A DNA stretch of 64,000 bases from a virus, in the IMG/VR virus record IMGVR_UViG_3300025141_000026, one strand, 5' to 3'. The notes under the pieces are model-generated. The model did not search any database and was not told the DNA's origin. It saw only the letters and a program-made list of their open reading frames with translations. The position numbers and the translations under genes are program-made. Below, one piece after another: positions 1 to 19,055 of this stretch (the stretch's first letter is position 1; every line of letters begins with the position of its first letter).

Positions 1-145
1 GGACACGGTTAGTAAGCCAAACCAAGTCGCCGGGGTTCAGGATGTCTCCGTTGTAATCTCGCAGGGGTCTGACTTTCGCTGCCCTCTCTGCTTCGCAGTT
101 CATCTCCCAGTTCTGTTGGTCGTTTGGTTCCCAGTCGTGTCTCAT
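1..145 (-). CDS. partial SH3/KOW-like miniprotein (runs off window)
   Basis: Manual translation MRHDWEPNDQQ...ILNPGDLVWLTNRV; ATGA overlap with upstream gene. Confidence 0.6.
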   Translation of the reverse strand, partial: MRHDWEPNDQQNWEMNCEAERAAKVRPLRDYNGDILNPGDLVWLTNRV

Positions 146-330
146 TTCACCTCGCTTACCACTATTAGGTCGTCAGGACGATACATAAAGGAAGGGTAAT
201 TACCTCCAATCCACTTGACCTTGGCTACTTTGGGGCTGTATTCAACCGTTTCCATAGATATAACAAGACCCAACTGGTTCTGTGTATCCCAAGAGGGGTC
301 ACGCCGCTTTACCAGATTACCGACTTTCAT
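142..330 (-). CDS. MKVGDLV-family SH3/KOW-like miniprotein
   Basis: MKVGNLV start, LGLVI strand, VKW, ends DLIVV. Confidence 0.75.
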   Translation of the reverse strand: MKVGNLVKRRDPSWDTQNQLGLVISMETVEYSPKVAKVKWIGGNYPSFMYRPDDLIVVSEVK

Positions 331-484
331 TTAGAACCTCCAAGCTATCTCGCCAGTGGGCGCATTTGATACCAGAGCCACAACTTTTGACTATCGGGTC
401 GTTCTCGTCATCAAAGCCGACGATAATCCCAAGAAAGGTGCGAAAGTTCAACCCTTTCCATCTTACCAAGTTACCGACTTTCAT
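317..484 (-). CDS. MKVGDLV-family miniprotein (55 aa, below ORF-track cutoff)
   Basis: Manual translation MKVGNLVRWKGLNFRTFLGIIVGFD...LEVLNESR. Confidence 0.75.
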   Translation of the reverse strand: MKVGNLVRWKGLNFRTFLGIIVGFDDENDPIVKSCGSGIKCAHWRDSLEVLNESR

Positions 485-651
485 TACTTCACCTCTTGCA
501 TTGCCAGTCGGTGAACGAGGTACGGATGGTCTTTGCCATCGAAGTTCACGACAAAGCGGTCAACCATGCGTTCATCAACAACAACCCCAACCTTCCCCTT
601 GTATTGGGGATAGTCATCTGGAAGCAATCTTACAAGTTTACCCTTCATCAT
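484..651 (-). CDS. KOW-like miniprotein (55 aa)
   Basis: MMKGKLVRLLPDDYPQYKGKVGVVV; KOW-like GKxGxV; GGGAG RBS. Confidence 0.75.
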   Translation of the reverse strand: MMKGKLVRLLPDDYPQYKGKVGVVVDERMVDRFVVNFDGKDHPYLVHRLAMQEVK

Positions 652-883
652 TTCTCCCACCTCTCTGGATTACTTTTAGTTCTCGTTTAGGAAGAATCTT
701 CATCTTCCCATTATTAAGCAAAACCTGTGCCCACAAGTGGTCGTTCTTGATGAATTCGTTGGGTTCCACGACTACACCCACCTCTGTTTTAAGGCTACTC
801 TTGGAAGCAATCTCAACCAAGTCTCCAACGTCTGGATGCTCCCAGCCTTCCTCTGCTCCATACATTTCAAAGTTATCGGACAT
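638..883 (-). CDS. MKVGDLV-family miniprotein
   Basis: VGDLVEI...VGVVV; start moved to ATG at 883 after GGAGG. Confidence 0.7.
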   Translation of the reverse strand: MSDNFEMYGAEEGWEHPDVGDLVEIASKSSLKTEVGVVVEPNEFIKNDHLWAQVLLNNGKMKILPKRELKVIQRGGRNDEG

Positions 884-1100
884 GACGCTTCCTCCCTGCA
901 AGTTCATACGCATAATCAACCCACTCTTCAACCGACAGCATATCAAGCCTGAATACCCCTGTGCCTGAAGTGCTCCACATAGCCGAGTCGCCACCAACGA
1001 AGACCCACTGCTTGACTGCACGGTCATACCAGAGGGAAATCCACTTCATCCGCTCATCCTGCTGGAGAATGGTTTCAATCTTTTTCTTGGTGACTTTCAT
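873..1100 (-). CDS. hypothetical phage protein
   Basis: MKVTKKKIE start after GAGGAG RBS. Confidence 0.65.
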   Translation of the reverse strand: MKVTKKKIETILQQDERMKWISLWYDRAVKQWVFVGGDSAMWSTSGTGVFRLDMLSVEEWVDYAYELAGRKRHVR

Positions 1101-1128
1101 GATCTTCTCCTCTGTTGTTGTTGTTGAG

Positions 1129-1305
1129 CTATGCCTGTTTCTGGTTCTTTTGATACCACTCAAAAGTCTTGAACCATGTATCCCCGCTCCACAAGAAAAC
1201 AGTGGAATTGATGTGGGCGCAGTCACGACACACCCCGAAATCACCGTCATAGGAATCCCTCACGTATCCAATGGAATTGTTGTCACAGTATCTACAAACT
1301 TTCAT
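1129..1305 (-). CDS. small Zn-finger protein (58 aa)
   Basis: Manual translation MKVCRYCDN...VCRDCAH with two CxxC; directly after the promoter motif. Confidence 0.65.
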   Translation of the reverse strand: MKVCRYCDNNSIGYVRDSYDGDFGVCRDCAHINSTVFLWSGDTWFKTFEWYQKNQKQA

Positions 1306-1332
1306 GATCTCTCCCTTTCTTGCCTACACTAT

Positions 1333-1360
1333 TTAGACGTAAGGCATTCAAGAATATTCA
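1333..1360 (-). promoter_or_regulatory. ECF-type promoter TGAATA-N15-CGTCTAA (copy 1)
   Basis: Bipartite motif, intergenic, upstream of RBS and ATG. Confidence 0.8.
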
Positions 1361-1367
1361 AAAAAAG

Positions 1368-1571
1368 TTATGCAAAGTTGCTAGAACCCAAACCGTACAA
1401 GTCTGAATCGTTGTTCTGTTTCATCTCTTCTTCTGTGAAGATTTCCTCTATTGCAGCCGACTTGATTGCAGAGCTATCAAAGAAGTAATCGCAGTTCTCC
1501 ATCACTTCCCTCTCGTCTGCCTCCGCATCTATCTCAACTGCTACTGTCAAATAAACCATCTTAGTTTTCAT
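1368..1571 (-). CDS. hypothetical acidic protein
   Basis: ORF with GGAGG RBS. Confidence 0.6.
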   Translation of the reverse strand: MKTKMVYLTVAVEIDAEADEREVMENCDYFFDSSAIKSAAIEEIFTEEEMKQNNDSDLYGLGSSNFA

Positions 1572-1803
1572 AGTCTCCTCCACTAAATAAAATAAGTTCT
1601 TGCTCTCGGAATAAACAAGTATAGGCTAACTTATCCCAATGGATTTTGCAGACAGCCCTTTCCTTCGGTGTGCCGGGGCTGCTCATCACAACCAAGCCCA
1701 ACACTTCGGGGAAGTCCTCAGTGCAAACTAGGTCACCGGGAAGAATCCTCGGTTGCTTTTGTTTGAGTTCAGCGAAGTCTATTGGTTGACCTGATAATAT
1801 CAT
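1561..1803 (-). CDS. MKVGDLV-family miniprotein
   Basis: PGDLV...LGLVV...KIHW. Confidence 0.7.
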   Translation of the reverse strand: MILSGQPIDFAELKQKQPRILPGDLVCTEDFPEVLGLVVMSSPGTPKERAVCKIHWDKLAYTCLFREQELILFSGGDYEN

Positions 1804-2027
1804 TTTACCCTCGTGCAAGAAAAGTTGTTGATTAGTGTCTGAATCGGCAAATGCGGTCGCTCTCTTGTATAGCGAATCTCAATCAGACCGGGACGCTCAG
1901 GGTCAGGGTTGGTATCGAGGACAATGGCAAATCCCTTCAGATTGTTCCAGTCACAGTCCGGGTCAATCTTCGGATGAACCTCGACCAACTCGCCAGCCTT
2001 GAGACGCCTTCTAATCACAGTGGTCAT
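1800..2027 (-). CDS. MKVGDLV-family miniprotein
   Basis: KAGELVEV...GFAIV. Confidence 0.65.
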   Translation of the reverse strand: MTTVIRRRLKAGELVEVHPKIDPDCDWNNLKGFAIVLDTNPDPERPGLIEIRYTRERPHLPIQTLINNFSCTRVK

Positions 2028-17782: not shown

Positions 17783-17802
17783 TTCTGCTCCTTTGCTGAA
17801 CG

Positions 17803-17810
17803 TAAGTAGT
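17803..17810 (-). promoter_or_regulatory. candidate late promoter ACTACTTA
   Basis: Variant of the CTAnTTA motif, ~20 nt upstream of the start. Confidence 0.45.
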
Positions 17811-18010
17811 TACTTTGCTTTTTTTAGATCTCTTCTGATATGGTACATGGTGCCACCACCACCTGACCACATTATTTTATACACATCCACGGGCGAGGGC
17901 ACTTCACTCTTTTGTACTTCAAGAATAATGCCGACCTTTCCTCTTACCCTAAAGTTTACGGATATTTTTTTCCCATATGCAGATAGCGTTACTAGTTCAC
18001 CTACTTCCAC
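17810..18010 (-). CDS. MKVGDLV-family (KOW) miniprotein
   Basis: GTG start, EVGELV...GKVGII...KIMW. Confidence 0.7.
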   Translation of the reverse strand: MEVGELVTLSAYGKKISVNFRVRGKVGIILEVQKSEVPSPVDVYKIMWSGGGGTMYHIRRDLKKAK

Positions 18011-18185
18011 TAGTTGTTGCCTCCGCAATAAGTTCCAGCCACTCCAGTGGCACAAGGTGAGCAAACGCCAAATCGGTCCACATAATTAGCGCCCATGGCT
18101 CGTGCATTTCCAGCACAACACCGGGTACATAATCCGTTTGACCGTTAAACGGCGATCTGTAAATCACTAGGTCACCCCTCTTCAT
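17997..18185 (-). CDS. MKVGDLV-family miniprotein
   Basis: MKRGDLVIY...PGVVL...IMW. Confidence 0.75.
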   Translation of the reverse strand: MKRGDLVIYRSPFNGQTDYVPGVVLEMHEPWALIMWTDLAFAHLVPLEWLELIAEATTSGSR

Positions 18186-18399
18186 GAATAAAAAGTTCCA
18201 AGCTGCTATCAGCAAACCACTGTGTTCTACCAGTAGTCATAACTAGAACTTTGTACTCTTTATAGTCCGTATTATTCGCTTGGGGCAAGCCTAAATATCT
18301 AGTGCGCTTGCCCCTTACGTCCAATACTAAACCCAACACGAACTCCCTCTTTGAGTAGTTTATGCGTGGCTGTAGTGTTACCAGATCGCCCGGTTTCAA
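18172..18399 (-). CDS. MKVGDLV-family miniprotein
   Basis: MKPGDLV...LGLVL. Confidence 0.75.
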   Translation of the reverse strand: MKPGDLVTLQPRINYSKREFVLGLVLDVRGKRTRYLGLPQANNTDYKEYKVLVMTTGRTQWFADSSLELFIHEEG

Positions 18400-18544
18400 T
18401 TATAGCCACCCCCTAGACACAAGCCAATGTTTCGCATACCAAAATGCACCAGCAATAGGACCAGCTAGTGCCCATTCACCATGACAATTAAAAAAATGTT
18501 CCATTAGGGCTCCATATTCGTGTTAGAAAATATCTCTACGGCAT

Positions 18545-18573
18545 AGTATAAACTCAGAAAGCTCAAAATGCAA
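18545..18573 (-). promoter_or_regulatory. sigma70-like promoter
   Basis: TTGCAT-N17-TATACT. Confidence 0.55.
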
Positions 18574-18637
18574 GTAGAAAATATCGAAAAGTATAACATA
18601 TCTTTACCCCTTTGTGAAAAAATTTTTCGTGACTTAT

Positions 18638-18715
18638 TTACGCCTTATCACGCAACCACATTATACCACGATACACAACCATTCCAATCAAAATTCCTGT
18701 TATTATCCCGGTCAT
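18638..18715 (-). CDS. 25-aa membrane peptide
   Basis: MTGIITGILIGMVVYRGIMWLRDKA after AGGAGGAGG RBS. Confidence 0.5.
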   Translation of the reverse strand: MTGIITGILIGMVVYRGIMWLRDKA

Positions 18716-18735
18716 TGTAACCTCCTCCTTTTTTA

Positions 18736-18763
18736 TGAATATTTGTATTTTTTTTACGTCTAA
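18736..18763 (+). promoter_or_regulatory. ECF-type promoter (copy 12, plus strand)
   Basis: TGAATA(18736)-N15-CGTCTAA(18757), 13 nt before the ATG of the only plus-strand gene. Confidence 0.8.
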
Positions 18764-18776
18764 CATAAGTAGACAA

Positions 18777-19055
18777 ATGGAGGTTAGCTTGTATAAAATA
18801 AGTCTCACGAGTGAAGAGATGGATAAGATTCAAAACAAGATAGATCAAAGAATGAAAAATCTATATTACAAATCAATGTGGAAACCAAAAATAGGAGACA
18901 AGGTGTCTGAACTATTTTACCCTGAGAATGGGATTGGAACAATTATCGATTTATCCGGGGGTGGAGGCTCTATGACGGCTCTTGTAAAGTGGGAAGCCAA
19001 TCAAGAATATATAGAGACAAGGCACCTTTCACTTATTCTAGATGAGGACTTATAG
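18777..19055 (+). CDS. SH3/KOW-family miniprotein, only credible plus-strand gene
   Basis: KIGDKV...GIGTII...LVKW; has its own promoter copy. Confidence 0.7.
   Translation: MEVSLYKISLTSEEMDKIQNKIDQRMKNLYYKSMWKPKIGDKVSELFYPENGIGTIIDLSGGGGSMTALVKWEANQEYIETRHLSLILDEDL

Follow-up and report, generated by a model that had tools for sequence, protein, structure and literature searches.

The closest described relatives in shape of the proteins considered here are the KOW domains of NusG and Spt5, uL24, eL14, and eS4 (PF00467), which are five-stranded barrels of the same size and topology. With respect to the arrangement of the genes, the closest described case is that of the T4-like phages, in which hyperplastic regions and PeSL cassettes consist of small, variable, non-core genes located between conserved modules; repeated regulatory sequences have been proposed to mediate modular shuffling in T4-type genomes (PMC4122927). 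Here, we analyzed a stretch of 64,000 nucleotides (nt) of viral DNA, IMG/VR record IMGVR_UViG_3300025141_000026, to which we refer as the window. Within positions 142 to 18399, 23 open reading frames (ORFs) on the minus strand constitute one paralogous family of miniproteins, and there is one possible further member. To find 23 paralogues of one miniprotein in a phage genome is unusual.

This miniprotein family is real, conserved, and previously undescribed. The two new features of the array are a 14-nt overlapping junction between successive members and a promoter-like motif, TTGAATA-N15-CGTCTAA. We lean toward a reading in which the array comprises 23 KOW/SH3-like cassettes that are coupled by their junctions and have a promoter class of their own, with each set of loops binding a different host or phage target.

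A paralogous family with a predicted barrel fold

Among the small ORFs (at least 40 amino acids) listed for positions 1 to 20 kb, about two dozen lie on the minus strand and carry K-V-G-D-L-V at or near their start. A loose regular expression, [KQ..]-x-G-[DNES]-[LK]-[VI], has 20 matches in the first 19 kb, of which 19 fall on the minus strand; the remaining 45 kb contain three matches, all in unrelated large proteins. Pairwise similarity between the paralogues is nearly nil. When 24 candidates were compared, three directed pairs had E<0.01, and the sole clearly recent pair is m14246 and m14437 (E=1e-9). We scored each of the 24 candidates in a leave-one-out test with a hidden Markov model (HMM), using as controls 200 shuffles of its own sequence and 1103 background six-frame ORFs from the window. 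In total, 23 candidates scored between 9.5 and 45 bits, each above all its own controls (the overall maximum was 10.4 bits for shuffles and 6.4 bits for background ORFs). A second profile, A2, was built from public database representatives and is external to the window. With it, 21 window ORFs score at E<1e-3, and the E values of m14629 and m6548 are 0.01 and 0.057, respectively. An ORF on the plus strand (18735-19055) was rejected as a member, given a leave-one-out score of 2.3 bits and an A2 E value of 1.2.

The sequence-only reading that preceded this analysis had described about 25 paralogues with an SH3-, KOW-, or Tudor-like barrel and had proposed an HMM built from them as a check. The family signal held in that check, but the count is 23 plus one possible member, because the plus-strand ORF fails both tests and the ORF at the window edge is truncated. 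Four ORFs that had been below the cutoff of the original ORF list (m317, m484, m8604, and m14437) exist on the minus strand, and all of them are members. The pattern of strands noted earlier ([KQ]-x-G-[DN]-L-V, G followed by hydrophobic residues, V-x-W, and a terminal strand with L) is borne out in 695 non-redundant members. In these, the conserved positions, with percent conservation after each letter, are K82-V70-G100-D90-L91-V91, followed by G86-[IVL]-[VI], V72-x-W57, and L72-E63-V53-I50. The loop columns are nearly devoid of information, and the indels fall there.

We obtained an AlphaFold2 model of m142 from an alignment of the 23 paralogues. It has a predicted local-distance difference test (pLDDT) score of 93.1, strands at residues 6-9, 21-28, 34-40, 48-50, and 55-59, and a short helical turn at residues 52-54 before beta5. 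The core motifs fall on the strands: beta1 carries G-D-L-V, beta2 carries G-h-V-h (h, hydrophobic), beta3 carries V-x-W, and beta5 carries L-x-V-I. Between paralogues, there is free variation in the length and sequence of the RT-like, n-Src-like, and distal loops. A model of m6548 from an independent alignment, consisting only of its orthologues, has a pLDDT of 94.8 and its barrel elements in the same order as in m142. Both models are five-stranded barrels, which counters the possibility that the predicted structures share no such fold.

We compared the m142 model with 48,161 chains from the PDB using VIA-align. The first match is an Spt5 KOW domain (4zn3_A, Z 9.5, root-mean-square deviation 1.7, 57 of 62 residues), followed by matches that include PsaE (Z 8.2), Tudor (7.9), NdhS (7.8), DSIF KOW6-7 (7.5), and NusG (2xhc, 7.2). 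Overall, 194 chains match at Z>=5; the 50 best, which were listed, are all SH3-like barrels. A Foldseek search with the barrel found NdhS, Spt5, PetP, eS4, HspQ, and R67 DHFR at TM scores of 0.65 to 0.73. Taken with the two models, these matches confirm, at the level of predicted structure, that the family fold is a small SH3-like beta-barrel of five strands and about 60 residues.

Overlapping junctions and promoter-like motifs

Adjacent members overlap by exactly 14 nt in 419 of 737 pairs (57%); the next most common class is an overlap of 4 nt (50 of 737). The consensus of 397 distinct junctions is tTGGAGGTnATCA-(GTG/ATG)-AAAGTCGGTGAtTTgGT, which reads L-E-V-I-S/N-E-S-R-stop in the upstream frame and M-K-V-G-D-L-V in the downstream frame. 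The beta5 codons for L-E-V (TTG-GAG-GTN) supply a Shine-Dalgarno (SD) sequence, GGAGGT, 5 nt before the GTG or ATG start codon, and the TGA stop codon of the upstream gene lies within GGT-GAY (Gly4-Asp5) of the downstream gene. Protein sequence, ribosome-binding site (RBS), start, and stop are thus packed into one repeated 32-nt module. An SD-like sequence is found ahead of 93% of junction starts, compared with 52% of other member starts. A 25-nt degenerate junction pattern is found in at least 120 IMG/VR stretches.

The presence of a junction is associated with conservation of the protein tail. Among members with a junction after them, 76% have a conserved E56, as compared with 35% of members without one; the corresponding values are 78% and 20% for E60 and 68% and 7% for R62. 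G-D-L-V, on the other side of the junction, is equally conserved with or without a preceding junction. The synonymous rate is 0.29 in the tail compared to 0.52 to 0.56 elsewhere. Dual coding in the overlapping junction explains the conservation of the E of L-E-V and of the S-E-S-R tail. Part of the conservation of the terminal strand and tail is thus a constraint on the DNA rather than a feature of the protein, and the "conserved C-terminal motif" of this family should be read with caution, since it reflects the nucleic acid and not the protein.

Comparison of the window with a close relative, L082, suggests how the array may change. L082 lacks exactly m8604, m8402, and m8179 (L082:6140-6200 compared with window 8153-8805), and its g8761/m7952 junction is a hybrid, with bases from both of the junctions that border this block in the window. 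Such a three-cassette indel could have arisen by recombination within the conserved start sequence. A tentative proposal, possible in our view although the chances are somewhat against it, is that the array is a library of self-expressing cassettes, analogous to an integron but lacking an integrase, in which the 32-nt junction would be at once RBS and start for the next gene, stop for the previous gene, and recombination site. KOW-like binders of fixed specificity would then be duplicated, deleted, and reordered without loss of expression, and the array would serve host takeover or counter-defence.

Two further observations concern the junctions. An ORF at 8761-8907 on the minus strand encodes an extremely basic, Lys/Arg-rich protein of 48 amino acids with 80 to 87% identity in L082 and a second close relative, L081; although this ORF lies outside the family, a 14-nt junction links its end to the next member. 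In addition, three database proteins of 115 to 127 amino acids (P0044, P0074, and P0142) are single ORFs that hold two tandem family barrels, presumably fusions of neighboring cassettes after loss of the stop in the junction.

The second new feature, TTGAATA-N15/16-CGTCTAA(A/T)nAGTG, has 11 copies in the window where 0 are expected. All are on the coding (minus) strand, all are in the array region, and each is located just upstream of an SD sequence and start codon. We take the TTGAATA-N15-CGTCTAA form to resemble promoters of extracytoplasmic function (ECF)-type sigma factors. A sequence like that of T4 late promoters, TATAAATA, is enriched in the window (10 copies versus 2.3 expected), but all seven copies on the coding strand are at 27 to 62 kb (27093-62492) and none is in the array region. 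Given that the TTGAATA motif occurs in the array only and the coding-strand TATAAATA elsewhere only, the array is probably a separate, non-late transcription class. A scan of the region for sigma70-type promoters found no significant enrichment, and terminator-like sites in the region are not enriched either (21 versus 16.8 +/- 3.7). At the upstream end of the array, three strong sigma70-like sites (18590-18687) lie on the minus strand of the divergent intergenic region 18400-18735, two of them with an extended -10 TG. They are upstream of m18172, the first gene after this intergenic region; the sole plus-strand ORF of the region begins on the opposite side.

Distribution and selection

The window derives from an uncultured large phage that encodes DnaE, DnaB, RecA, a family A polymerase, a class II ribonucleotide reductase, and a GroEL-like chaperonin. 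Its DnaE has at most 31% identity to that of any isolate. The gene for the GroEL-type chaperonin (Cpn60_TCP1, E=1.6e-68; 30069-31643, minus strand) adjoins the replication genes, namely those for the class II ribonucleotide reductase, DnaB, RecA, the family A polymerase, and DnaE.

We collected 160 related loci from IMG/VR and marine metagenomes, anchored on the AAA_5 ATPase encoded in the array region. The family HMM has 411 matches in the first 80 of these loci, all on the coding strand. With both profiles, we detected 1229 members in 2.2 Mb; clustering at 60% identity places them in 695 groups. The five large related records, of about 190 to 196 kb, contain 9 to 22 members each, on one strand and mostly within one stretch of about 20 kb; according to CheckV, four of these records are 100% complete and the fifth, G002, is 71% complete. 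The number of members per 20 kb ranges from 0 to 23 among relatives, which indicates that the copy number of the family changes fast.

A scan of 1.84 billion public representative proteins returned 433 matching clusters (50% identity) at E<=1e-3. Among the 150 matches listed, nearly all have a length of 50 to 95 amino acids and begin at residue 1, and where they have a name (Tara, JGI, ENA) it is "hypothetical protein". When two members were searched with tblastn in 50,697 genomes of cultured or deposited phages, there was no match at E<=1 and only two chance-level matches, at E values of 5 to 7. We also looked for longer fused forms and found none, which is weak evidence. The family thus consists of phage-specific, stand-alone miniproteins of a clade of uncultured marine phages of about 190 kb; these phages are abundant, and the whole clade carries such arrays. 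At least 1229 members have now been sampled, and none of the matching database clusters is named.

The close relatives L081 and L082 have ATPase identities to the window of 92% and 89%, respectively. Syntenic orthologues of window members in these two loci have 52 to 93% identity and ratios of nonsynonymous to synonymous polymorphism (pN/pS) of 0.08 to 0.40, which resemble those of neighboring small genes outside the family. We also compared 140 independent pairs of orthologues that came from different loci; the ratio of nonsynonymous to synonymous substitution rates (dN/dS) was 0.12 for the strand columns and 0.17 for the loop columns. We did not find positive selection on the loops, as none of the 140 pairs has dN/dS>1; because dS is near saturation in many pairs, episodic selection may have escaped detection. 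Purifying selection on the orthologues shows that the ORFs are translated and constrained, loops included.

These comparisons revise the earlier picture of the array. The possibility that the ORFs are neither conserved nor translated is countered by the conserved orthologues and the purifying selection on them. The notion of a diversified scaffold with variable loops holds among paralogues, as seen in the 695 members, but not among orthologues, whose loops are conserved. Copy number varies between related phages, and the comparison of loop dN/dS gave no sign of accelerated change. The conserved orthologous loops suggest that each cassette has a fixed specificity, rather than being part of a hypervariable library engaged in an arms race.

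Table 1. Coordinates of family members and associated features in the window (LOO, leave-one-out HMM score; A2, E value with profile A2; aa, amino acids; id., identity; identities and pN/pS refer to orthologues in L081 and/or L082)
Feature	Coordinates	Strand	Observations
Possible further member	2..145	-	ORF cut by window edge; only ...NPGDLVWLTNRV visible; E=5.7
m142	142..330	-	62 aa, MKVGNLV...; LOO 45 bits; A2 6.5e-18; AlphaFold2 pLDDT 93
m317	317..484	-	55 aa; LOO 15.3 bits; A2 1.3e-11; tail LNESR* overlaps MKVGN of m142
m484	484..651	-	55 aa, MMKGKLV...; LOO 9.7 bits (weak); A2 3e-9; shares 1 nt with m317 (TAATG)
m638	638..883	-	81 aa; barrel 638-838; LOO 32 bits; L082 60% id.
m1561	1561..1818	-	Barrel 1561-1746, N-terminal extension; LOO 18.9 bits; A2 1.3e-5; absent from L082
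m1800	1800..2048	-	Barrel 1800-2009; LOO 11.3 bits; A2 7e-4; L082 70% id., pN/pS 0.35
m3558	3558..3842	-	94 aa, long loops; LOO 23.7 bits; 54-56% id.; TTGAATA-N15-CGTCTAA motif directly upstream
m6548	6548..7165	-	205 aa, two-domain relative; LOO 17 bits; barrel by own structure model
m7209	7209..7391	-	60 aa; LOO 22 bits; 73-93% id., pN/pS 0.08-0.19
m7563	7563..7766	-	67 aa; LOO 28 bits; 68-76% id.; identical to database representative P0001
m7952	7952..8182	-	76 aa; LOO 31 bits; 63-79% id.; ATGA overlap with m8179
m8179	8179..8415	-	Start taken at ATG 8415; barrel 8179-8382; LOO 27 bits; L081 81% id.; absent from L082
m8402	8402..8617	-	71 aa; LOO 25.8 bits; A2 3.5e-14; absent from L082
m8604	8604..8774	-	56 aa; LOO 15.3 bits; A2 1e-10; 14-nt overlaps on both sides
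m12509	12509..12730	-	73 aa; LOO 15 bits; A2 3.6e-11; L082 65% id., pN/pS 0.18
m12734	12734..12985	-	Barrel 12734-12922; LOO 26 bits; L082 61% id.
m12948	12948..13148	-	66 aa; LOO 9.5 bits (weak); A2 4e-6; L082 78% id., pN/pS 0.19
m14246	14246..14440	-	64 aa; LOO 31.7 bits
m14437	14437..14595	-	52 aa; LOO 16.6 bits; absent from L082; ATGA overlap with m14246
m14629	14629..14847	-	72 aa; weakest sequence support; LOO 13.4 bits; A2 0.01; L082 68% id., pN/pS 0.23
m17810	17810..18010	-	GTG start 18010 inside 14-nt junction; LOO 31.8 bits; A2 9e-12
m17997	17997..18185	-	62 aa; LOO 30 bits; A2 4e-13
m18172	18172..18399	-	75 aa; LOO 30 bits; A2 2.6e-9
14-nt overlaps	317-330 (m142 and m317), 638-651 (m484 and m638), 8402-8415 (m8179 and m8402), 8604-8617, 8761-8774, 17997-18010, 18172-18185
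Promoter-like motif, copies 1-6	1333-1361, 2335-2363, 3353-3381, 3871-3899, 5378-5406, 6522-6551	-
Promoter-like motif, copies 7-11	7169-7197, 8929-8957, 9779-9807, 12463-12491, 15077-15105	-
DUF2201 gene	4202-5356		Metallopeptidase/VWA protein
AAA_5 ATPase gene	5412-6491		MoxR-type

Possible functions and relation to known systems

In the reading that we favor, the junction of about 32 nt would couple the translation of successive cassettes, and its repeated sequence would permit duplication, deletion, and reshuffling of cassettes by recombination with expression retained. The array would be transcribed as several polycistronic, non-late units from the region-specific TTGAATA-N15-CGTCTAA motif. 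Its products would be cytoplasmic single-domain binding modules, each of which would use its own loops to recognize a different macromolecule of the host or the phage and would redirect or block it during infection, in host takeover or counter-defence. The isoelectric points (pI) of the members range from 4.2 to 10.3 with a bimodal distribution (about 42% of members above 8 and 37% acidic), which argues against one common nucleic-acid-binding role. We counted this range and the unconserved loops in favor of diverse partners.

Several points weigh on the other side. We infer the functional part from the fold and the evolutionary pattern, and a shared fold shows no function. The members could have one common partner, bound through a conserved face (K2, D5, and W41), and purifying selection on the loops is not by itself proof that the loops are the binding surface. 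The roles of the junction in coupling and recombination are likewise deduced from sequence, and the single three-cassette indel rests on few diagnostic bases. Moreover, the exact TTGAATA-N15-CGTCTAA motif is kept in only 14 of the 160 related loci.

The similarity in shape to KOW domains suggests that the members could be mimics, that is, free NusG/Spt5-like KOW domains that dock on S10, Rho, RNA polymerase, or RNA, by which the phage would uncouple or redirect host transcription and translation. The Spt5 match agrees with this, as do the basic members, and there is some sequence similarity as well. The best match of profile A2 among PDB sequences is the KOW domain of Thermotoga maritima NusG (whole-sequence E=0.007, domain i-E 0.91), in an alignment that covers beta1 to beta5 and in which "KVGD-V" of beta1 and "G-V-" of beta2 line up; hhalign against a single NusG KOW sequence gave 87.6% over 28 columns (beta1 to beta2). 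However, Pfam KOW matches no scanned member: none was reported for 20 window members at E<=1, and with 132 members, a total of 47 families matched, but KOW was absent from the 25 most frequent. Nor did it match in the complete related genome G001, whereas all 14 control genomes match. In place of the typical G-x-F-x-G hairpin of KOW, the members have a variable loop; more than a third of them are acidic, and a handful of KOW partners hardly explains 23 different copies. We consider this explanation unlikely. Of the known kinds of barrel, KOW is the closest in modeled shape, with a weak link in sequence, and membership in KOW is not established.

Searches for other relationships gave little. 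In Pfam, the 20 window members and the set of 132 had only sub-threshold matches, to assorted SH3-type families; in PHROGs, 10 window members had no family and one match at E=0.0056; and the closest clusters in the ESM Atlas are viral and without a name. Two aromatic residues are partly conserved in the family (W in 57% of members at beta3 and in 32% at beta4); the cage by which Tudor and chromo domains bind methyl-lysine or methyl-arginine has three to four.

A third explanation draws on the neighborhood of m6548, which combines an eight-helix N-terminal domain with a C-terminal barrel at residues 141-201 (~6560-6745). The barrel matches DSIF KOW6-7 (Z 7.7) and NusG (Z 6.9); for the helical domain, neither Foldseek (E>0.06) nor VIA (Z<=7, on short helical pieces) found a clear structural match. 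The gene is upstream of those for the AAA_5 ATPase and the DUF2201 protein, with which it may form a three-gene module of m6548, MoxR-type ATPase, and VWA/metallopeptidase. HspQ is a specificity factor that delivers targets to the protease Lon. By analogy, the barrels could be interchangeable adaptors that deliver targets to the ATPase and its DUF2201 partner. Consistent with this, HspQ is among the fold matches, members are within about 10 to 20 kb of the AAA_5/DUF2201 pair in four of the five large genomes, and m6548 is conserved directly upstream of the ATPase, with full-length homologues in 71 related loci. However, this linkage arises partly by construction, since all loci were fetched via the ATPase. 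Of the first 80 loci, 15 have the ATPase but no member within 10 kb, and in one large genome, G005, most members are 20 to 35 kb away. The HspQ match (Z 6.5) is also no better than that of dozens of other barrels, and we regard the adaptor explanation as quite improbable.

It is very improbable that the copies are dispensable cassettes, multiplied by a duplication-prone junction and individually adding little to the phage: copy numbers from 0 to 23, cassette-precise indels, and the widespread conserved junction repeat would agree with this, but all orthologue pairs tested are under purifying selection, loops included, and the syntenic orthologues of window members have been kept at the identities given above.

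The array region also encodes a c-type cytochrome and a DUF3108 protein. A further minus-strand ORF within it (11076-12437, 453 amino acids) matches no Pfam family and is absent from L082, and a peptide-pattern scan of IMG/VR found no relative of it.

The family is a compact, well-predicted natural scaffold, the loops of which have explored a very large sequence space. Such a scaffold should be directly usable in screens for binders of host proteins or defence systems. The junction, for its part, gives a testable model for the growth of multigene arrays in phages.

Among known proteins, PsaE, NdhS, PetP, HspQ/YccV, R67 DHFR, and YorP of prophage SPbeta are similar to the members in being single-domain barrels of 55 to 80 residues (Z 6.4 to 8.2), and they act by binding partner complexes or by oligomerizing. 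They have no sequence relationship to the phage family and no overlapping cassette junction, and to our knowledge none of them is a large diversified multigene family. KOW differs from the phage family in that its Pfam model does not match and its glycine-rich hairpin corresponds to a variable loop in the phage proteins; in addition, KOW is a domain of larger factors, whereas the phage proteins stand alone in 9 to 23 copies per phage genome. In comparison to the hyperplastic regions of T4-like phages (PMC4122927), most small genes of the array belong to one protein family. The PeSL repeat of T4, in which an early promoter and a stem-loop terminator flank each mobile gene, is a promoter-terminator stem-loop, whereas the repeat of the array is a coding junction that unites SD sequence, start, and stop in two reading frames, and the array has, in addition, its own repeated promoter-like motif.

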